Positions 337 through 8,440 of a stretch of DNA of 64,000 nucleotides are shown here, one piece after another (the stretch's first letter is position 1; every line of letters starts with the position of its first letter). Under the pieces are notes generated by a model that did not search any database, was not told where the DNA came from, and saw only the letters and a list, made by a program, of their open reading frames with translations. A program made the position numbers and the translations under genes. Source of the DNA: Escherichia coli (GTDB lineage: Bacteria; Pseudomonadota; Gammaproteobacteria; Enterobacterales; Enterobacteriaceae). The stretch lies in NCBI GenBank assembly GCA_025336685.1, contig GCA_025336685.1_4717.1; one strand, written 5' to 3'.

Positions 337-546
337 TTACGGTAGGATTTCTGCGCCCGTCGGGCCTGCCTTACGAGCTTCCAACGCACCAAGGTCGTAT
401 TTCAACGTCAGCGTATCGTTGGTGGTAAATAGGTTGTGGTAAGTCGAAATCAGATCGGTAACCTGTGCGCCTACGATCTCGTTCATGTCGAAGGCAGAAC
501 CTTGACCATCATCAGCACGAACGATTTTGTCGCCAGCAGAGACCAT
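337..546 (-). CDS. small hypothetical protein (69 aa)
   Basis: ORF track; ATG start; stop abuts start of next minus gene; separate from 616-1221 (in-frame stops between them). Confidence 0.4.
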   Translation of the reverse strand: MVSAGDKIVRADDGQGSAFDMNEIVGAQVTDLISTYHNLFTTNDTLTLKYDLGALEARKAGPTGAEILP

Positions 547-615
547 CCCAATTTCAGAAATAACCGCGCAGTACTCTTCAATTACCCGGAGAGTTTAGCC
601 ACATTGAGATATTCG

Positions 616-1221
616 TTAATATCCTGATGGTGTCCAGACCAAAGAGACTCCAGCTATAATCGTAGTACTTCCGGTCGCTACCAGAATTCCTGTTGTTGGA
701 ATATCCGGTCGGGGCGGGTTGAGGTTCTTGTCGGTCGGATGCCATTCGATAGTCTGAGCAACACCATCGATGTACTTGGTATATCGCATGGAGCGGACAA
801 CGTTATCGAAATCGATGCGACGACCGTAATAACAGATGTACTTTTTACCGTTTTCCAGCGTCTCAATACGACGTAACCCAAATCTAGCACGTTCGTCCGT
901 GGTCAAATCGTTACCAACTTCACGCATCACGAAAGGTTTGATTTTCCATGGTGAAAGATCGCTTGCTTCGTGAGCGATCGGCATCGAGGAAGGGATGCCG
1001 TTAGCGTTGCGGATGAATTCGTGACCTTGGTTGCCGATACAGAAGTAACGTACAGCAGGATTACCCTCGGGGTAAATCTTTGATTGAATCTGAAGCTTTT
1101 CGTTCAAGGTGCTGTGTTCTTCCCACGCATGAGGAAGACCGAGCGTAAGGTTCGTTTGTACTTGACCGCCGATAATCGTACGGACGATACGATCGGTAGC
1201 ACGGATTTGTGTAGAAGCCAT
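616..1221 (-). CDS. hypothetical protein (201 aa)
   Basis: ORF track; ATG at 1221; tight spacing with upstream gene. Confidence 0.7.
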   Translation of the reverse strand: MASTQIRATDRIVRTIIGGQVQTNLTLGLPHAWEEHSTLNEKLQIQSKIYPEGNPAVRYFCIGNQGHEFIRNANGIPSSMPIAHEASDLSPWKIKPFVMREVGNDLTTDERARFGLRRIETLENGKKYICYYGRRIDFDNVVRSMRYTKYIDGVAQTIEWHPTDKNLNPPRPDIPTTGILVATGSTTIIAGVSLVWTPSGY

Positions 1222-1237: not shown

Positions 1238-2089
1238 TCAGTTATATTGCATCAACAGGATACCGCCGTAGTTCGTGCAGTAATCTTGGCTAAGCGTAAC
1301 GATAACAGCGTTAGCGAACGCAGGGTTAACAGGATAACCCTGTGCGATAAGTTCTGTTGTTTTACCGGTTGCGAGTACGGTAGCCCCGTAAAGGTTGTTT
1401 TCGTCTTCACGACCGTTATAAACCCATGGGGTTGGCGCAACGTTGTTGAATAAGCTAACCATTGCGCTTAGGTTACCACCAACCTTTAACCCGGCAAGAT
1501 CGGAACGGATTGCTGTGCAGTCTATAGCGTAACTGTAGACCAACGCTTGGATACGATTTGCGGTGTAGTACGGGAAATTGAGACCGGCCATCACCGTGGT
1601 CTTCATCATCCCCGCAATATCGCGCGCGCTATCGAGGAGGTAGAATGTAACACTTCCCGTCCAAGCCAATCCGGTTGTTTTCAATTCTACGACATGAGGG
1701 AATGGGTATTCATTCCCTCGAACAATCGGAGAATCGACGCAGCTATCCCGATCGATAACGATTCCGTACGTCGATTGGATCAGAGGGATAAGATCGTGCG
1801 TTGTTTTAACCCCGGCGTCGATAGCAAGCTTCGGTTCCATTCCCAAGAAGAAGTCTTGGATAGGGATACGATCGTACCACACGTAGCTGCTTTCACGGTA
1901 TTGTGCTGGCGTTACTGTTGCCGAAGGCGATACCTTAGCGCGGGTGTTCCGTTTATACGCATGGTTTCCGTTTTCAGCAGCATCCGTGATCTCAAGCGCA
2001 TCGAAGTTAAAGTCGAAGTCAGGATTGGCAGCCTGAATAAGTTCGGCGACCAGTACTTTAGGACTTTTGTTTAACAATTTCTGACTCAT
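1238..2089 (-). CDS. hypothetical protein, tandem paralog family with LAWTGSV motif (283 aa)
   Basis: ATG with AGGAA SD; shares LAWTGSV and C-terminal Y..G.P.. segments with the adjacent 2100-3035 gene. Confidence 0.8.
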   Translation of the reverse strand: MSQKLLNKSPKVLVAELIQAANPDFDFNFDALEITDAAENGNHAYKRNTRAKVSPSATVTPAQYRESSYVWYDRIPIQDFFLGMEPKLAIDAGVKTTHDLIPLIQSTYGIVIDRDSCVDSPIVRGNEYPFPHVVELKTTGLAWTGSVTFYLLDSARDIAGMMKTTVMAGLNFPYYTANRIQALVYSYAIDCTAIRSDLAGLKVGGNLSAMVSLFNNVAPTPWVYNGREDENNLYGATVLATGKTTELIAQGYPVNPAFANAVIVTLSQDYCTNYGGILLMQYN

Positions 2090-2099
2090 TGTTTATTCC

Positions 2100-3035
2100 T
2101 TAGCCTTGTTCTTCTGGAGAACGACCCTGGAGGCTTGCGGTATGTCCGTCGACGTTGTAATAGAAAATCAATGGACCGCCGACAGCAGTACAGTAGTTTT
2201 CATCCAGACTGATCTCGATACCGTATTGGTAACCTGCTCGTGCTGGAATACGTCCGCCTAACTCGCCGTTGAAAGCCACTTTAGCGTTATACAGGTTATA
2301 CGGTGCGATGTTGTCGTCTAATACCCAACGATCGGCGGTCATTTCAGCCAGAAGATCGGCGACCACCACATCGCTAATGACCGTACCTGTTACCAGCGAA
2401 GCCAGCAACTCACCGTAATCGGAAGTATCACGACTGTAGCTGTAGATTTCACCGCTAGCGCGTACGCCTTGTCCGAAGAACTTAAGACCATCAAGCTCTT
2501 TGATTGCGATAATATCATCAAGATTCGGTACACGCGATTTCATCAAGATACGAACACTTCCCGTCCAAGCCAGGCAATCAGATACGACACGGAGCAATTG
2601 TCCGTTAACGGTATCCCAGTTAAGTTCGTCGTTGACAATTTCTTCTGCGGTAAGGCCGAGACCGAAACGTTCTTTGATGATAGGCCAGATATCACGCATC
2701 TTGGTGGCATCTGGTGCATCGATAAGAATAGGTGCTACGTTACGTAGATACGCACCGATGTTAATACGATCGTAATACAGCGTCGTCGAACCTTCGTAAT
2801 CGTCTAACTCGGTAAGCTTAGCGGTTGCCGTTGCCGTAATCTGGGTATCGCGCTCGTAGGCGCTTTGGTTGGTGGTTGGTGTCCCTAAAACCAATAATTC
2901 AGGGGTTAGAACATGTTCTCCGTTCTGAGGTGGGTTATCGTGGTTGATAAGACCATACACGAGATCGGATGAGGGTAAAGAGACGTCGACCGGGTAAAGT
3001 TCGGTGTCGTCAATAGTTGTTACCGTATCACTCAC
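2100..3035 (-). CDS. hypothetical protein, tandem paralog of 1238-2089 (about 311 aa)
   Basis: ORF track gives GTG at 3047 without SD; second GTG at 3035 is preceded by GGAGG at 5 nt, so start placed there. Confidence 0.75.
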   Translation of the reverse strand: MSDTVTTIDDTELYPVDVSLPSSDLVYGLINHDNPPQNGEHVLTPELLVLGTPTTNQSAYERDTQITATATAKLTELDDYEGSTTLYYDRINIGAYLRNVAPILIDAPDATKMRDIWPIIKERFGLGLTAEEIVNDELNWDTVNGQLLRVVSDCLAWTGSVRILMKSRVPNLDDIIAIKELDGLKFFGQGVRASGEIYSYSRDTSDYGELLASLVTGTVISDVVVADLLAEMTADRWVLDDNIAPYNLYNAKVAFNGELGGRIPARAGYQYGIEISLDENYCTAVGGPLIFYYNVDGHTASLQGRSPEEQG

Positions 3036-3094
3036 GGTGACCTCCACGCCAGGAATTAATTAAAAAAGACTTTACGATTTGCTGCGCTATCACG

Positions 3095-5506
3095 TTAAGC
3101 GTCCTCGATAGGCAAAGGTTTAACAATCAAACGATTGAGCGGATTCGATAGACGCATACTGACAGGCTTATACGCAACATGATTCGTCTCACTTAGAACC
3201 GCTGACCTGAAACGACCATTCACCTGTTTGTAGATTGGATCTATCCAAAGACCTTGAAGGTCGCGCTTACGGAAACGTTGTTCGAACGGTTTGATCGGGT
3301 TTATGGTCAGCCCATGCAGCGACTCCGACAGTAAACGCTCACGAAGGTCGCGTGGTGCCCGACCCGGGAACGGTGCAAGCCACAAACCATCGAGTGGGTT
3401 TTTACGGAAACGTAACGAGATGGGATCACTGATGACTTGTGCCCAATATTGCGTACTGAATCGAACCGTTTGGGTATTCTCGTAACCGCTACAGTCACAC
3501 CAGGTTGGTTTCGGAGGTGCTTCCAAACTTTCAACCACCGATTCGCGCCAGTTCGTCATCGGGTTGTTATCATGTACGAATTTGATAACTTCCGTAGCCT
3601 GGTTATCCGTATCATGAACGTTTGCCTGTGCCCAGTCTTCCCACAGTTCTTCACTACCACTTACTAAACTCGAACCAAGACGAACGGCGATTTTGTTTAG
3701 TGGTTTGATTGGATCACTGTTGATTGTCTGGATAAAATGGATGGTGTAACTACTCAATGTCTTAAGCAGCTGCAGCATTCCGTATTGAATATCCTTAAGA
3801 CTGGTGACATCTTCCAAATCTTGACCGGTGGCCTTTGTGAAGATATCGAGAGCCAGAATTCCCGCCTCTTCTTGACTGATTGCGTCAAGCTCCCAATCCA
3901 TCGCTAAGAACCATTCCTTGTAAAGCTGCCCAATACCGAAGTCGACACCAACATCCATGTAAAAGTTTTCAACGATGGCTTCAGCCATACCTCGAGCTTG
4001 ATAATGCTCTTGGAGCTGGTACATGAACTGATGACGACGCCAGCCCTGGTAGATCTCGGTAACGACGTTGAGAAACTCTTCAGTACTGACGACCGGACGC
4101 AATGTTACTTGCTTATCCAAACACCACCAGATCAGTTTATCGGGAATGATAGCGGGATCGGTAATGCTACGGAGATGGTCGAATGTCGGTAGCGTTAACA
4201 CCCTGACATGGTTAGCATGGATCTTAGGTACTTCAATCAGCGTCATGCCCATCGAATAGTTCAGCAAATACAAGAACAGCTTGTATGCATCTTTCATCGA
4301 CATCGTCATGGTATCACCCGTCACCGGGTTGGTTGTCGTTAACCGTGACTGGTACATGCCTATAGCGCTAAGATGAATCCATTCGTTCAGTAGGAAATCA
4401 TACTTAGGATACAATTCACTGTCTGTAAGGTCTTCCGCTTCACTTTCCAACACCTTGGTCGTTAAGGTGTTGTTGTCATGCATCGACATTTTCTCTATCG
4501 TGCGGTTAAGCTCGGTATAATACTCCGCTTCGTTATCCCGCGCTAAAGGGAACTGTTGCTGCATCACGGTGGTGACCTTACGCCTTACCGTGCCGTTGCC
4601 GACGATCTCTTGAAGGTTAAGTGGTTTACGCTCCATGTAAACGGTAGGTTTTAACGTCTGAGGTATCTCGGAAGCGTCTTGTTTGATCGAGAACGCACCG
4701 ATTGGAATTCCACGTTCGGTTAATACCTTTTGAATGAGCTTATCGTAGTTTTCCGTTCTGCCCATGTTTCTTTCAACGTAAGCAATGTTACGATAAAACC
4801 AGAGCATTTGAGATTCGGTCATGTATCGCTCGAATCGATCAAGACCTTGATGGCTTGCCAGATAACTCCAGATATGGAAGCTATGGGCATAATGGGTATG
4901 ACAGTTTTCCCAACGAATACCTTTTATCATCTCAGGTATTTGTGTGAATAGAATGGCGTATAACGCAGGCCAATGAAGCATATCGACGCTTTCATACGCC
5001 GGGTGTTCCCAACGTCTAAAGTAATCATCGATTTCTTGCTGTAAGCGTGGAATAAGATTGGCCTCGCGCGATTCAACCTCTCGTGTATCGTACCAGAGAA
5101 TCTCATGATTGCGTGCCGCAATTGCTTTCTCGATATCGATGGGGTTAAGGATACCCAAGATCAACATACGTTGTTCTGGATACCGCGCAATTAAACGATT
5201 GAAATAATCTCCGCCGTACGCGTATTCCCTTGCTGTCATGCGATGTCGTAACATGTTTTCCTTGGTGAACTCGATCTCTTCGAGCGTATCCAGGGAATTT
5301 ACGGTCATCATTGTCTGACAAGGATGATACTCGCCAGCGAGATTCATGTAGTATAACCACGTGCGTGGGTCGTCCCCGACGGCCATCTGGTAGACTTCGG
5401 AAACCTTGAGGTTTAACCGTTCTGCCGTGATGTCGCTTTTAATAATCAGGGTGTCCGTTAGACGCTGCACGCTTTCCGAATAAAGCTGATAGTCAGTGTT
5501 GGACAC
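3095..5506 (-). CDS. large hypothetical virion-associated protein with C-terminal tandem peptide repeats (about 803 aa)
   Basis: Long ORF; ORF-track start 5575 is TTG without SD; GTG at 5506 preceded by GGAGGA; C-terminus carries repeats RFRKNPLDGLW / RFRKRDLQGLW. Confidence 0.75.
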   Translation of the reverse strand: MSNTDYQLYSESVQRLTDTLIIKSDITAERLNLKVSEVYQMAVGDDPRTWLYYMNLAGEYHPCQTMMTVNSLDTLEEIEFTKENMLRHRMTAREYAYGGDYFNRLIARYPEQRMLILGILNPIDIEKAIAARNHEILWYDTREVESREANLIPRLQQEIDDYFRRWEHPAYESVDMLHWPALYAILFTQIPEMIKGIRWENCHTHYAHSFHIWSYLASHQGLDRFERYMTESQMLWFYRNIAYVERNMGRTENYDKLIQKVLTERGIPIGAFSIKQDASEIPQTLKPTVYMERKPLNLQEIVGNGTVRRKVTTVMQQQFPLARDNEAEYYTELNRTIEKMSMHDNNTLTTKVLESEAEDLTDSELYPKYDFLLNEWIHLSAIGMYQSRLTTTNPVTGDTMTMSMKDAYKLFLYLLNYSMGMTLIEVPKIHANHVRVLTLPTFDHLRSITDPAIIPDKLIWWCLDKQVTLRPVVSTEEFLNVVTEIYQGWRRHQFMYQLQEHYQARGMAEAIVENFYMDVGVDFGIGQLYKEWFLAMDWELDAISQEEAGILALDIFTKATGQDLEDVTSLKDIQYGMLQLLKTLSSYTIHFIQTINSDPIKPLNKIAVRLGSSLVSGSEELWEDWAQANVHDTDNQATEVIKFVHDNNPMTNWRESVVESLEAPPKPTWCDCSGYENTQTVRFSTQYWAQVISDPISLRFRKNPLDGLWLAPFPGRAPRDLRERLLSESLHGLTINPIKPFEQRFRKRDLQGLWIDPIYKQVNGRFRSAVLSETNHVAYKPVSMRLSNPLNRLIVKPLPIEDA

Positions 5507-5533
5507 GATCGGTCCTCCAAGGAGCCAGTGTAA

Positions 5534-8440
5534 ATGAACGATATAAATAAAGGGCGCGTCGCCCTCGAACGTCAAATGAGCAATAATGACGTTGCGAAGG
5601 CACTCATGAACAAATTTGTCGCTCCTGCTCCGCAGTCACGTCTTTATAATACACGTGATGCGGAAGGAGCGAGCGGTCGTTTCGGGTTAGTTGTTCCCGA
5701 CCAAATGACGATGAACACGGTTACGCGTGCGACCGCGACAAACATCGAGGATAATAAAAACATCCTCGAGTTGTTCCCTGAACTTAAACGCGTGATGCAG
5801 ATCTACGTTGCCGCGTTGACGAACCCTAACGATCTTAAGACGGTCGAGATGTTTATCGATAGCGAAGATTTCCCGGGTAGGGTCGCAGAAATCGTTCAGC
5901 CGATGATCGATACCATCGACACGCATTTTAAGAATATCTATAAAATAAAGACGCTTATCCCTCGTATCATCGAAGACGTCTTCTTTATCAAGGGCAGTTA
6001 TAACTTCGTTGTTCTGCCAGAAAGCACGCTCGACCGCGCTATTAATGGTAACGGTCAACTGAAACTTGAAGAATACGGGTTTAGAGACAACCATTTCGCA
6101 AGTTGGGGGCTTTTAGGTAACGACAGTCGCAAACGTCACGAAAATCAATTACCTTCGACGGTCTCGATGGAAGATTATTTCTCGGGCGTTAATGAAACCA
6201 TACCGTACGATCCCGTTGTCCGTATAGACAGCATTAAGTTTACCAATACCCTGCTTCGTGATAAGGACGGTAAATTCATTGAAGCGAAGATCGATATTCC
6301 GGATATGGTTACGGTTGTCGATAACCCAGATATTCTCCGCATGCCTATTTTGCATCAACGTCGAGCAGCGACAGCGGTGCAACGCGCGTTACGCACGAAC
6401 ACGTTAGGAGGTAGTGGTTTGGTAACACTGTCAGGTGATCCAACCCTAACCGCTAACCGACGTGAGCTGTCGCAAGAACAGGTTAACGAGATTTGGAATA
6501 AACTCAACATCCAACGTCACACCAAGGTATCTCCCGTTTACGCGCTGGCAACCCCAGATACGCTTGATCGTCAAAGCGTTGGCCATCCTGGTGTGATGCA
6601 CGTACCACCTGAGGCATTAGAACCCGTACATGCACCAGGTGATCCGGAGAACCATATCGGGTATTTAGTTCAGTTGGATGAGTTTGGTTATCCGGTGCGT
6701 TTGGTTGAGGATGCTGCGTATTACAAGCAGTTGGAAGGTCGGTTGTCGAAGATCACCGCGGATATCGCGGGTACGTCAAGCAACGGCATGGCGAGCGAGA
6801 TGATCGGTGCGGCCAAGAACATGATCCAAGGTACGTCGTGTAATCAAGTAGACATGTCGGCCTTCGTGTCATCGTACGAATCATTGATGCAACGCTACAT
6901 CGTTGAACGAATCGTCAACGGTTATCTTGGTAGTGCGGTGGAGATCGGTGCGACATCATCGTTTTACCTATCGATGCTTGCTCGCAGTCTCGCCCACAAG
7001 CAGACCCGTGTTTTGTTTATTCCTCGAGAGATGGTGACATACATCGCTTATGAATACAACAAATACGGTATTGGTCGTTCACTGCTTGAAAGTACGAAGA
7101 TGATCTCGTCGCAACGAGCCATGCTCATGGTTCAAGAACTGATGGCGAAAATCAAAAGTTCGTTGAACTATACGACGCTAAGTGTAATGCTTGAAGATAC
7201 CGACAGAAACCCGGTCGATACCGTCGAACAGGCACTACATAGTTTCGCTCGCGTCTACCAGTCTGGTTTCCCGTTGGGTGAAACTAACCCAATGGACATC
7301 ATCAACGCATACGAACGAAGCTCGATTCGATTGAAGGTTGAGGGGAATAACCCACGCTTCCCGAAATTGAATACGGACGTCAGCGTTGAGCAGCGTAACT
7401 ATCAGTCTCCTGATAATGAATTGATGGATCGTTACCGTCGTGACCACTTCATGGGTTTGGGAGTTTCTCCAGAGATTATCGATACTTCCTACCAATCTGA
7501 ATTCGCGGCTTCTGTGATTACCGCTAACGCGATGCAAGAGAAGCAGTTCACGGTTTGTCGTGAGGTTATCACGAACGGATTAACTGATCACATCAAGAAG
7601 TACACGGCTTACAGTCCTGTATTGTTGACGTCGCTACGAAACACGGTTCGTGCGAACATGTCTAAGCTCTCCCAAGCACAATTGAAACAGCTTTTTGGTA
7701 GCGATTTCGAAAACGGCGTTATTCGTAACGTTAATGCTTATCAGGAGATCGACGACCAGTCAGCAACAATGGACCTGGATTATTCTAAACCGGAAGTTCA
7801 GGAAGTTATTGCCGATGCTTATGTATCCATGTTCTTAAACAGTCTGCAGGTGCGTTTACCGAACAGCAATGCTCGCCGCCTTGAAGATCAGGTACGTGAA
7901 TATAATCAGTACAAGGAAGCGATTACAGCGCAACTTGATGATTATTTAACGCCTGATTACGTCATGGGTCTGGGTGGGGTTGATGAAACAACACTGCAGA
8001 TGATCCGTGCATGCATTATTGGTACCGCGATGCGTACATGGGCAAAAGAGAACAACTTCAATCAGGAGCTGGCTGATCTCTTCAGTCTCGACGATAAGAA
8101 GAATGCCGTGCAAGATTGGAAACGTGCATCCATGGAACATATTGAAATCATGGGTAAATGCATGGGTGATTTTGCATTGTATATTCAGAATCTGACGAAG
8201 AAGATTGAAGAGAAGATGGGAGATCAAGCACAGGACGGCAGCGTTTCATCTGATGGTTCTTGGTCGTCTGATTCAAGTAGTGATACCGGTTCTTCTGATG
8301 ACTTTGGCGGTGATGATTTCGGGGATACCGATTTCGATACCGAAACGATGGAGGAAACCTCAACAGAGGAGACAACCACGTCTGAGGATACGACTACCGA
8401 TACAACGTCAGAAGACGAGACTTCAGGTGATATTGTCTAA
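5534..8440 (+). CDS. large hypothetical protein with acidic S/T/D/E-rich C-terminal tail (968 aa)
   Basis: ATG at 5534 with GGAG SD 9 nt upstream; 2.9 kb ORF; last ~70 aa low-complexity acidic. Confidence 0.85.
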   Translation: MNDINKGRVALERQMSNNDVAKALMNKFVAPAPQSRLYNTRDAEGASGRFGLVVPDQMTMNTVTRATATNIEDNKNILELFPELKRVMQIYVAALTNPNDLKTVEMFIDSEDFPGRVAEIVQPMIDTIDTHFKNIYKIKTLIPRIIEDVFFIKGSYNFVVLPESTLDRAINGNGQLKLEEYGFRDNHFASWGLLGNDSRKRHENQLPSTVSMEDYFSGVNETIPYDPVVRIDSIKFTNTLLRDKDGKFIEAKIDIPDMVTVVDNPDILRMPILHQRRAATAVQRALRTNTLGGSGLVTLSGDPTLTANRRELSQEQVNEIWNKLNIQRHTKVSPVYALATPDTLDRQSVGHPGVMHVPPEALEPVHAPGDPENHIGYLVQLDEFGYPVRLVEDAAYYKQLEGRLSKITADIAGTSSNGMASEMIGAAKNMIQGTSCNQVDMSAFVSSYESLMQRYIVERIVNGYLGSAVEIGATSSFYLSMLARSLAHKQTRVLFIPREMVTYIAYEYNKYGIGRSLLESTKMISSQRAMLMVQELMAKIKSSLNYTTLSVMLEDTDRNPVDTVEQALHSFARVYQSGFPLGETNPMDIINAYERSSIRLKVEGNNPRFPKLNTDVSVEQRNYQSPDNELMDRYRRDHFMGLGVSPEIIDTSYQSEFAASVITANAMQEKQFTVCREVITNGLTDHIKKYTAYSPVLLTSLRNTVRANMSKLSQAQLKQLFGSDFENGVIRNVNAYQEIDDQSATMDLDYSKPEVQEVIADAYVSMFLNSLQVRLPNSNARRLEDQVREYNQYKEAITAQLDDYLTPDYVMGLGGVDETTLQMIRACIIGTAMRTWAKENNFNQELADLFSLDDKKNAVQDWKRASMEHIEIMGKCMGDFALYIQNLTKKIEEKMGDQAQDGSVSSDGSWSSDSSSDTGSSDDFGGDDFGDTDFDTETMEETSTEETTTSEDTTTDTTSEDETSGDIV

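Follow-up and report, generated by a model that had tools for sequence, protein, structure and literature searches.

The locus analysed here raises the question of what a series of repeated peptides at the C-terminus of an 803-aa phage protein is, and of what it may bind. The window (the whole 64,000-nucleotide stretch of DNA under analysis) comes from a close relative of the E. coli jumbo phage Goslar, a Goslar-like, nucleus-forming phage. The original prediction held that the gene contains an in-gene tandem repeat at 3235-3415 encoding RFRK..L.GLW peptides, and that this repeat may form a binding module prone to changes in copy number.

The gene encodes a chimallivirus baseplate wedge protein

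The gene lies at window positions 3095-5506 on the minus strand and, with the GTG start given in the annotation of Goslar gp035, encodes 803 aa. Its orthologs are Goslar gp35 and phiKZ gp128 (phrog_3222, matched with E=4.3e-210); identity is 95.9% to Goslar in nucleotides and 97.8% to Goslar gp35 in amino acids. Searching the PDB with phmmer returned 11lx_Bh and 36za_sR (E=0 for both) together with 9xqs_C, the PHIKZ128 chain (E=9.5e-111), and 643 homologs of the protein were retrieved. At E<=0.01 the 826-aa ORF of the gene had no Pfam match, and so it is without the DUF7941 domain (PF25613). In the window, Goslar, phiKZ, the Erwinia phage Deimos-Minion and metagenomic loci alike, the gene is divergent from the portal gene, and DUF7941 and then DUF7208 genes follow. 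With a homologous core of ~600 aa, a matching fold and a retained gene neighbourhood, the protein is a chimallivirus baseplate wedge protein.

In Goslar, gp35 belongs to the inner baseplate at six copies per virion (mass-spectrometry table of the Goslar preprint, 10.64898/2026.04.21.720040) and is placed by the same preprint in the upper wedge beside a gp32 dimer; in phiKZ, a (gp87)2-gp128 heterotrimer has gp128 as its wedge protein (PMC13250141). Its analogue in role is T4 gp7, the single-copy member of the (gp6)2-gp7 wedge heterotrimer, which links the inner baseplate to the periphery (PMC13250141; 10.64898/2026.04.21.720040).

The protein divides into a folded, alpha-rich core (aa 1-600; 3707-5506, minus strand), as delimited by AF2, Foldseek, the PDB and tblastn, and a C-terminal tail (aa 601-803; 3098-3706, minus strand) that is predicted to be intrinsically disordered and that differs among family members in both length and sequence. 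Over the core, the AF2 pLDDT was mostly 80-95, and a Foldseek comparison of the AF2 model with 9xqs_C gave a TM score of 0.80 across 610 modelled residues (E=7.7e-49). At E<=0.001 phiKZ gp128 was the only PDB match found by Foldseek, with no T4- or Mu-type wedge protein among the matches, and as modelled the core has an alpha-rich fold particular to chimalliviruses. It is conserved across the Chimalliviridae and corresponds to the portion modelled by cryo-EM: PDB chain 36za_sR comprises residues 1-595 of the wedge protein, and most of the tblastn alignments to 290 matched phage records stop at about residue 595-610.

Members of the family range from 682 to 1310 aa, and only the core is conserved among them. 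In our AF2 model (MSA of 38 sequences) the pLDDT of the tail was below 50 at residues 603-606 and 608-803, with values of 26-44 across about 603-803, and secondary structure was almost nil; the ~200-aa tail is thus predicted not to fold on its own. A folded beta-repeat domain was considered for the tail and rejected, as AF2 predicted no structure there. Core and synteny are what the window protein has in common with the deposited Goslar gp35 and phiKZ gp128 models (PDB 11lx, 36za and 9xqs), whereas the repeat-bearing tail is absent from both, the modelled residues ending at about 595-610. Searching the full texts of the Goslar preprint (10.64898/2026.04.21.720040) and of PMC13250141 turned up no mention of the tail repeats.

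Five diverged peptide units make up the end of the tail

The final 105 aa of the tail consist of five diverged units of ~20 aa (R1-R5; window 3098-3412) built around the core L-x-G-L-W-Φ-x-P, the fuller unit being (R-F/L-R)-x(2-6)-L-x-G-L-W/T-Φ-x-P-Φ. All lie on the minus strand. R1 is RFRKNPLDGLWLAPFPGRAP (aa 699-718; 3353-3412), which scored 13.8 with a position-specific scoring matrix (PSSM) trained on the tails; R2 is RDLRERLLSESLHGLTINPIKPFEQ (aa 719-743; 3278-3352), which aligns with ELDGLW of the ortholog P0003 and ELDGLV of the ortholog P0002; and R3 is RFRKRDLQGLWIDPIYKQVNG (aa 744-764; 3215-3277), whose LQGLWIDP is also found in Deimos-Minion gp7. Two further units are degenerate: R4, RFRSAVLSETNHVAYKPVSMR (aa 765-785; 3152-3214), where the orthologous position of P0003 reads RRFVSAELDGLYPVEFKPF, and R5, LSNPLNRLIVKPLPIEDA (aa 786-803; 3098-3151), where it reads GGELNGLETSSLP and after which comes the stop codon (3095-3097). 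The peptide repeats first proposed are accordingly real, namely RFRKNPLDGLWLAPFP (aa 699-714; 3365-3412) and RFRKRDLQGLWIDPIYK (aa 744-760; 3227-3277, minus strand). Guesses that NPIKPF and NPLNRLIVKPLP are degenerate copies proved correct, P0002 and P0003 having ELDGLW, ELDGLY and ELNGLE in their place. The span originally given takes in R1, R2 and most of R3 but falls short of the full array.

Because the array is biased in composition (R 12%, P 10.5%, L 14%), we considered whether the units might be a chance similarity within a low-complexity, Arg/Pro/Leu-rich tail without function. The best self-alignment within the last 160 aa scored 71, ~10 sd above the mean of 200 composition-preserving shuffles (mean 25.9, sd 4.6, max 47), none of which scored as high. 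Moreover, the anchor residues (L, G, L, W/Y and P) are conserved down to 61% identity within fast-evolving flanks and recur in a different genus, and a matrix derived from DUF7941 proteins, described below, found 119 matches in real tails against 7 in shuffled ones. Together these observations effectively refute the chance reading.

Codon changes between the window and Goslar tell of the same pattern: 9 nonsynonymous and 20 synonymous changes fall in the array, the figures for the core being 7 and 49, and none of the changes in the array is at an anchor residue. With its few conserved anchors, fast-evolving flanks and predicted disorder, the tail reads as a putative short-linear-motif array. 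A further candidate for the repeated peptides, prohead-protease cleavage sites, was rejected, since this is a baseplate protein and not a head protein and since the S/A/G-x-E pattern does not fit. (S/A/G-x-E is the pattern of the phiKZ gp175 prohead protease.)

The repeat resides in the peptide and not in the DNA

The prediction of a tandem repeat at the DNA level did not hold up. Tandem Repeats Finder (TRF) with a minimum score of 30 found no tandem array, and the sole exact DNA repeat in the gene is the 12-nt direct repeat TTACGGAAACGT (+ strand), whose copies at 3267-3278 and 3402-3413 are 135 nt apart and encode part of RFRK in R3 and in R1, respectively. By our own estimate, about 0.17 such 12-nt pairs are expected by chance in a 2.4-kb gene. 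Of the DNA motif quoted originally, CGTTTCCGTAA(G/A) is exact, but the second element varies, the two copies having GGTTTGTGG and GGTCTTTGG.

It is very improbable that the array is a DNA tandem repeat in which slippage adds and removes units, so that strains would differ in copy number. The 12-nt repeat and the differing copy numbers of distant family members could be taken to favour such slippage. However, R1 and R3 share only 28 of 48 nt (~58%), are not head-to-tail and have diverged units between them, and TRF sees no array. In addition, the same five units are present in Goslar, L009, L011, P0001 and P0003, P0002 having those five and a sixth; three IMG/VR relatives have these same five; and R1-R5 are kept position for position in P0002 and P0003 even at 61-63% identity. 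Repeat number is thus constant among the Goslar-like relatives, save for the sixth unit of P0002, and varies from 0 to at least 11 across the family. Copy number shifts over deep evolution and not by slippage, so that the predicted proneness to copy-number change applies on the longer timescale and not between close strains.

The motif recurs in wedge-protein tails and in DUF7941 proteins

The motif L-D-G-[LF]-x-Y-P is present in the tails of the family in numbers from 0 to at least 11. In 121 proteins, the tail-trained PSSM found 208 matches in tails (up to 11 per protein) and 1 in the 620-aa heads. About two thirds of the tails had no copy at the threshold used, and copy number correlated with protein length (r = 0.72); some copies are spaced by only 11-13 residues. 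Deimos-Minion gp7 contains five copies of L.GLW.DP; a search of the phiKZ gp128 tail, which is shorter, gave no convincing copy. These findings suggest that the variable extra length of the wedge protein across jumbo phages is largely a putative, reusable docking motif. Outside the tail the motif is rare, with just one other match scoring 10 or more in the six-frame ORFs of the window (about 34,000 aa).

DUF7941 proteins, encoded directly downstream, carry the motif as well. The ortholog of Goslar gp34 (2100-3047, minus strand; PF25613, E=3.8e-63) has one copy, IKELDGLKFFGQ (window 2469-2504), just past its N-terminal domain and is a candidate partner of the tail; the ortholog of Goslar gp33 (1238-2089, minus strand; PF25613, E=3.6e-47) has one copy, TTVMAGLNFPYY (window 1565-1600). 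Protein-homolog searches for DUF7941 gave 11 and 19 proteins, and for the family alignment we used instead 229 ORFs located beside gp35 homologs, drawn from 80 IMG/VR loci and three metagenome-assembly loci (L005-L007). Their consensus reads ...SLRWVGEVTVTL....DLSDLLLVTDLDGLNYP, and in 43 of 53 scoring sites the motif lies 24-27 residues past an invariant W. In each of the five Goslar DUF7941 paralogs tested, the best match to the tail-trained PSSM fell in that one alignment column, with weak scores (3.4-10.6).

A PSSM built from the DUF7941 column only, and hence not circular, found 119 matches in gp35 tails, 14 in heads and a mean of 7.0 in shuffled tails. The window's own L-x-G-L-W units, which are without Y-P, were not scored by this PSSM (built from 16 sites and then from 42), and for the window variant the link to DUF7941 is consequently carried by the L-x-G-L core and by the orthologs; certain DUF7941 linkers read NNILDGLWAPDF where R1 of the window reads KNPLDGLWLAPF. 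The likeness between the wedge tail and the DUF7941 fibre-cloud proteins thus consists of the L-D-G-[LF]-x-Y-P motif (L-x-G-L-W in some lineages), the adjacency of the genes and one natural fusion, P0014, present on 4 contigs, in which a wedge core is followed by four LDGL motifs and then by the N-terminal domain of a DUF7941 protein. The placement of the motif differs: DUF7941 proteins have it once, at a fixed offset past a globular domain, whereas the gp35 ortholog of the window has five copies in a disordered tail.

The tail as a putative docking array

Because the motif of the tail also occurs once in the fibre-forming DUF7941 proteins of the phage, the tail is, judged from sequence, probably a series of docking sites by which DUF7941 fibres, or another outer part of the baseplate, are attached to the baseplate. 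A repeat-based binding module, as originally suggested, fits the conserved anchors, the predicted disorder and the recurrence of the motif in the family and in DUF7941. More specifically, we tentatively take the tail to be a multivalent array of short docking motifs that most likely recruits DUF7941 N-terminal domains, and we infer both the role of the peptide and its receptor. The folded ~600-aa core builds the inner baseplate and the flexible ~200-aa tail extends onward from it, and each unit would be a peptide fitting a pocket on some globular protein of the peripheral baseplate; five sites per wedge would amount to 30 per baseplate.

AF3 models, together with gp22 filaments, point to docking of the DUF7941 linker on a neighbouring N-terminal domain, and the Goslar study proposes that DUF7941 proteins form a fibre cloud for host capture, the mode of attachment not being given (both 10.64898/2026.04.21.720040). 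The linker bearing L-D-G-L-x-Y-P is predicted to dock onto the next protomer during head-to-tail polymerisation, and the wedge tail may mimic this linker and so anchor or nucleate DUF7941 fibres. It is possible, if rather less likely than not, that the tail is the baseplate anchor of the fibre cloud and presents the donor peptide for polymerisation, with one fibre per copy (30 per Goslar baseplate, as against the 6 assumed) and with gain and loss of motifs (0 to at least 11) setting the number of fibres. Donor-strand or donor-peptide polymerisation, as in chaperone-usher pili, follows an analogous logic: each subunit lends a short peptide to its neighbour, which receives it in a dedicated site, and an anchor that presents such a peptide can start a fibre. 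These systems have no homology to the wedge tail, and pili are not known to use an anchor with several copies of the peptide. Among the DUF7941 ORFs, 55 of 223 consist of the N-terminal domain only, and in these the domain is present and its own motif absent; gp23 has only about 33 residues past the N-terminal domain, ADGFVKP among them. In the cryo-EM maps of the peripheral baseplate, at 7.9 Å for Goslar and 4.4 Å for phiKZ, most of the density has no protein assigned to it. The shared motif offers a specific hypothesis for fibre attachment.

Other candidate partners of the tail

Not all of the evidence favours DUF7941 as the receptor. In phiKZ, gp127 is mounted on the baseplate despite a motif-less gp128, and it sits at the far end of the spoke and not at the wedge, which argues against docking of DUF7941 by the tail. 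A rival candidate is the spoke protein, Goslar gp32 (DUF7208, PF23838), whose ortholog in the window (337-1221, minus strand) is encoded in the same operon and, on alignment with Goslar and by its translations, is interrupted by small indels. Spokes contain five gp32 dimers in Goslar (10.64898/2026.04.21.720040) and five gp139 dimers in phiKZ (PMC13250141). The five motifs might bind five successive gp32 homodimers, so that the extended tail would staple the spoke and fix or measure its length. Five motifs are found in the Goslar-like clade and, independently, in Deimos-Minion; the first dimer is touched by gp35/gp128; and by our own estimate the spacing of 19-25 residues would reach a maximum of ~6-8 nm if extended, which is of the order of one dimer. 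Nevertheless, phiKZ makes a five-dimer spoke with a motif-less gp128, family members have anywhere from 0 to at least 11 copies, some only 11-13 residues apart, and the fixed-site motif of DUF7941 is left unexplained unless DUF7941 also binds gp32. We think such a spoke staple unlikely.

Gene counts in the genomes showed no trace of a pairing with DUF7941. Within ±10 kb, and with lineages that are non-independent, the number of tail motifs was uncorrelated with how many DUF7941 genes lie nearby (Spearman rho 0.12, p 0.33) and with domain-only DUF7941 copies (Fisher p=0.80; rho 0.01), and the presence of tail motifs was unrelated to that of a linker motif in the neighbouring DUF7941 (Fisher p=0.81). 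In an AF2 model of P0014 residues 682-962 (block MSA), the DUF7941 N-terminal domain was confident and the four motifs appeared as low-confidence helices whose pLDDT was not raised, so that the model gives no sign of docking in cis.

These results, and the fact that much of the peripheral baseplate is unmodelled in both phages, count in favour of a reading in which the tail docks to another peripheral-baseplate or fibre component (gp220, for example, or a protein in the unassigned density) or takes on a repeat fold only once assembled; the likeness to DUF7941 would then reflect a shared third partner or convergence. Even with a different partner, the array would be a well-defined putative interaction module in a protein that infection requires. 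We consider this alternative rather unlikely, for the motif is specifically common to DUF7941 and rare elsewhere, and a natural fusion of the wedge protein with DUF7941 exists.

A five-unit peptide repeat at the C-terminus of the wedge protein

Escherichia phage vB_EcoM_Goslar is a nucleus-forming jumbo phage of the Chimalliviridae, and across the wedge gene alone the window is 95.9% identical to it at the DNA level. The wedge-gene ORF (3095–5575, minus strand) encloses the annotated 803-aa wedge protein, whose start is the GTG at 5506, matching the Goslar gp035 annotation. The protein matches PDB chains 11lx_Bh (803 aa) and 36za_sR (595 aa; residues 1–595 of the wedge protein), both with E=0, as well as phiKZ gp128 (9xqs_C, E=9.5e-111). 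In Goslar, gp35 is part of the inner baseplate's 'upper wedge', where it adjoins the first of the five gp32 homodimers that make up a spoke (10.64898/2026.04.21.720040); in phiKZ, one copy of gp128 joins two of gp87 in the (gp87)2-gp128 wedge heterotrimer and contacts gp139 dimer A (PMC13250141). The gene neighbors agree with this placement: downstream of the wedge gene, also on the minus strand, are two DUF7941 genes (2100–3047 and 1238–2089) and a DUF7208 spoke gene encoding the Goslar gp32 ortholog (294 aa; 337–1221), and the portal gene (5534–8440, plus strand) is divergent from it. Both the wedge protein and the structure of its core were known before.

The original prediction placed a tandem repeat at 3235–3415 within this gene, and both peptides it quoted are found in the wedge protein. 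At the protein level the repeat is well supported, the best local self-alignment of the last 160 aa scoring 71 against 25.9±4.6 (maximum 47) for 200 shuffles. Alignment with the orthologs from Goslar, two IMG/VR relatives and the homologs P0001, P0002 and P0003 (the latter two being 61–63% identical relatives) delimits five orthologous units, all encoded on the minus strand: R1 (RFRKNPLDGLWLAPFPGRAP, 3353–3412), R2 (RDLRERLLSESLHGLTINPIKPFEQ, 3278–3352), R3 (RFRKRDLQGLWIDPIYKQVNG, 3215–3277), R4 (RFRSAVLSETNHVAYKPVSMR, 3152–3214) and R5 (LSNPLNRLIVKPLPIEDA, 3098–3151). The predicted interval therefore holds R1, R2 and most of R3, but the array extends to R5, at 3098. In P0003 all five units read L-(K/D/N)-G-L-(W/Y/E); the ancestral array therefore had five units, of which R4 and R5 have decayed in the Goslar lineage. 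The predicted tandem array at the DNA level was not recovered: TRF (minimum score 30) finds none in the gene, the only exact DNA repeat is one of 12 nt (3267–3278 and 3402–3413, spaced 135 nt), and R1 and R3 are identical at 28 of 48 nt. The lack of a TRF array, the 12-nt repeat as the only one and the retention of the units in relatives effectively exclude copy-number variation driven by slippage.

An AlphaFold2 model of the wedge protein, built from a 38-sequence alignment, is confident over residues 1–600 (10-residue block means mostly 80–95) and has pLDDT below 50 at all of residues 603–606 and 608–803, with essentially no secondary structure there. The only PDB structural neighbor of the model is phiKZ gp128 (TM 0.80). 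The tail is absent from both experimental models, since Goslar chain 36za_sR stops at residue 595 and 610 of the 724 residues of gp128 are modeled. In the array, the window and Goslar differ by 9 nonsynonymous and 20 synonymous codon changes, versus 7 and 49 in the core, and all nine nonsynonymous array changes fall at non-anchor positions. Predicted disorder together with codon changes that spare the anchors is the hallmark of short linear motifs that lie within a disordered, fast-evolving region.

The tail motif recurs in the wedge family and in DUF7941 proteins

The core alone is common to the wedge homologs (120 listed of 643 found) and 290 phage genomes, and among those listed protein length ranges from 682 to 1310 aa. 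The extra tail length consists largely of one motif. A 12-mer scoring matrix (PSSM) trained on the tails, with consensus [ND]-[VPT]-x-L-D-G-[LF]-x-Y-P-P, has 208 non-overlapping matches in the tails (1.1 per 100 aa) versus 1 in all 121 heads (the first 620 aa). At the threshold used, copies per protein range from 0 to 11 and correlate with protein length (r=0.72); many-copy tails include those of P0008 (LDGF) and of P0103 and P0038 (LDxLxYP). Inspection of the phiKZ gp128 tail revealed no copy of the motif. Erwinia phage Deimos-Minion gp7 (locus L089, 5992–8367) has five L.GLW.DP copies, one of which, LQGLWIDP, is identical to window R3; this cultured phage belongs to a different genus (Agricanvirus) and shares motif number and flavor with the Goslar lineage. 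Many lineages beyond these two have 0 or up to 11 motifs.

The DUF7941 proteins encoded beside gp35 bear the same motif once. Searching 83 loci with an HMM built on the N-terminal domain of DUF7941 yielded 229 ORFs, whose consensus past the domain is ...SLRWVGEVTVTL....DLSDLLLVTDLDGLNYP. In 43 of 53 scoring sites the motif lies 24–27 residues past an invariant Trp, and in 83 of 172 proteins it is the top tail-PSSM match of the entire ORF; a further 55 of 223 ORFs stop directly after the domain. For Goslar gp22, gp23, gp31, gp33 and gp34, all five of those tested, the top match falls in one shared alignment column. A tail-independent PSSM, made from 42 DUF7941 sites picked by alignment column alone, has 119 matches in gp35-family tails versus 14 in heads, and composition-matched shuffled tails give a mean of 7.0 (maximum 11). 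Certain DUF7941 linkers (NNILDGLWAPDF) are closely like window R1 (KNPLDGLWLAPF). Chance similarity of the units is effectively excluded by the shuffle scores, the conservation of the units and these DUF7941-PSSM matches. We rate the wedge protein as one with a multivalent short-motif tail. In full-text searches of the two structural papers (the Goslar preprint and PMC13250141), neither the array nor the family-wide motif nor its sharing with DUF7941 came up.

At some loci (L052 and L056, from IMG/VR) a 285-aa wedge tail lacks the motif, and 7 of 8 neighboring DUF7941 paralogs there have a crisp TDL(D/N)GFxYP linker, which suggests lineage-specific alternatives in where the motif is deployed. 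Elsewhere in the window the tail PSSM has just one more strong match, LVQLDEFGYPVR (score 13.3), at aa 378–389 of the portal protein (5534–8440). It sits in the wing domain and has the L-D-x-F-x-Y-P pattern of the tail motif; this match is probably due to chance.

A putative role for the tail in recruiting DUF7941 proteins

[quoted passage not shown] The same study proposed a baseplate-anchored fiber cloud with six assumed sites and no named anchor. We infer, as the best explanation of our findings, that the gp35 tail may be a multivalent copy of the DUF7941 donor (linker) peptide that would recruit DUF7941 N-terminal domains, either to start a fiber or to hold domain-only members.

The two modules also occur in a single polypeptide, P0014 (1310 aa; L007 10001–13933, also L008), which consists of a wedge core, four LDGL motifs, a DUF7941 N-terminal domain and ~350 further residues comprising further domains. 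Four contigs carry it, drawn from two or more independent datasets (one ENA assembly and one Logan/SRA run), and its locus encodes three separate DUF7941 proteins as well. AF2 folds its DUF7941 part confidently (pLDDT 85–97); with the P0014 model as a cis proxy, no docking of the motifs on that domain was seen. Three observations count against DUF7941 recruitment: the number of motifs in a tail shows no correlation with how many DUF7941 genes lie nearby, phiKZ has a motif-free gp128 and carries gp127 at the spoke's distal end, and Goslar's own DUF7941 linker motifs match the tail PSSM weakly.

In the main rival explanation, the partners of the five motifs would be the spoke's five gp32 dimers, and the coincidental occurrence of five motifs in two separate genera speaks for it; as a general rule, however, gp32 binding is opposed by the motif-free phiKZ protein and by the copy-number range of 0–11. 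Alternatively, the motifs could bind another partner within the unmodeled peripheral baseplate. Recruitment of DUF7941 domains by a donor-peptide array offers a concrete, fast-to-test hypothesis on how peripheral fibers are attached.

Observations on neighboring genes

Relative to Goslar, the gp32 ortholog of the window has four small indels within ~100 nt (around 575–675), which shift the reading frame in two local patches and introduce two in-frame stops; as a result, ORF calling yields two pieces of the gene, 616–1221 (201 aa) and 337–546 (69 aa). The indels reflect either assembly errors or a disrupted spoke gene. In its last ~70 aa the portal protein (Goslar gp36 ortholog, plus strand) has a long low-complexity tail that is acidic and rich in Ser/Thr (…SSDSSSDTGSSDDFGGDDFGDTDFDTETMEETSTEETTTSEDTTTDTTSEDETSGDIV); this tail lies past the crown domain, which in Goslar ends at residue 923 (10.64898/2026.04.21.720040). 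Finally, only 27 nt (5507–5533) lie between the start codons of the divergent wedge (5506, minus) and portal (5534, plus) genes; at least one of these genes must therefore have its promoters within the coding sequence of the other.
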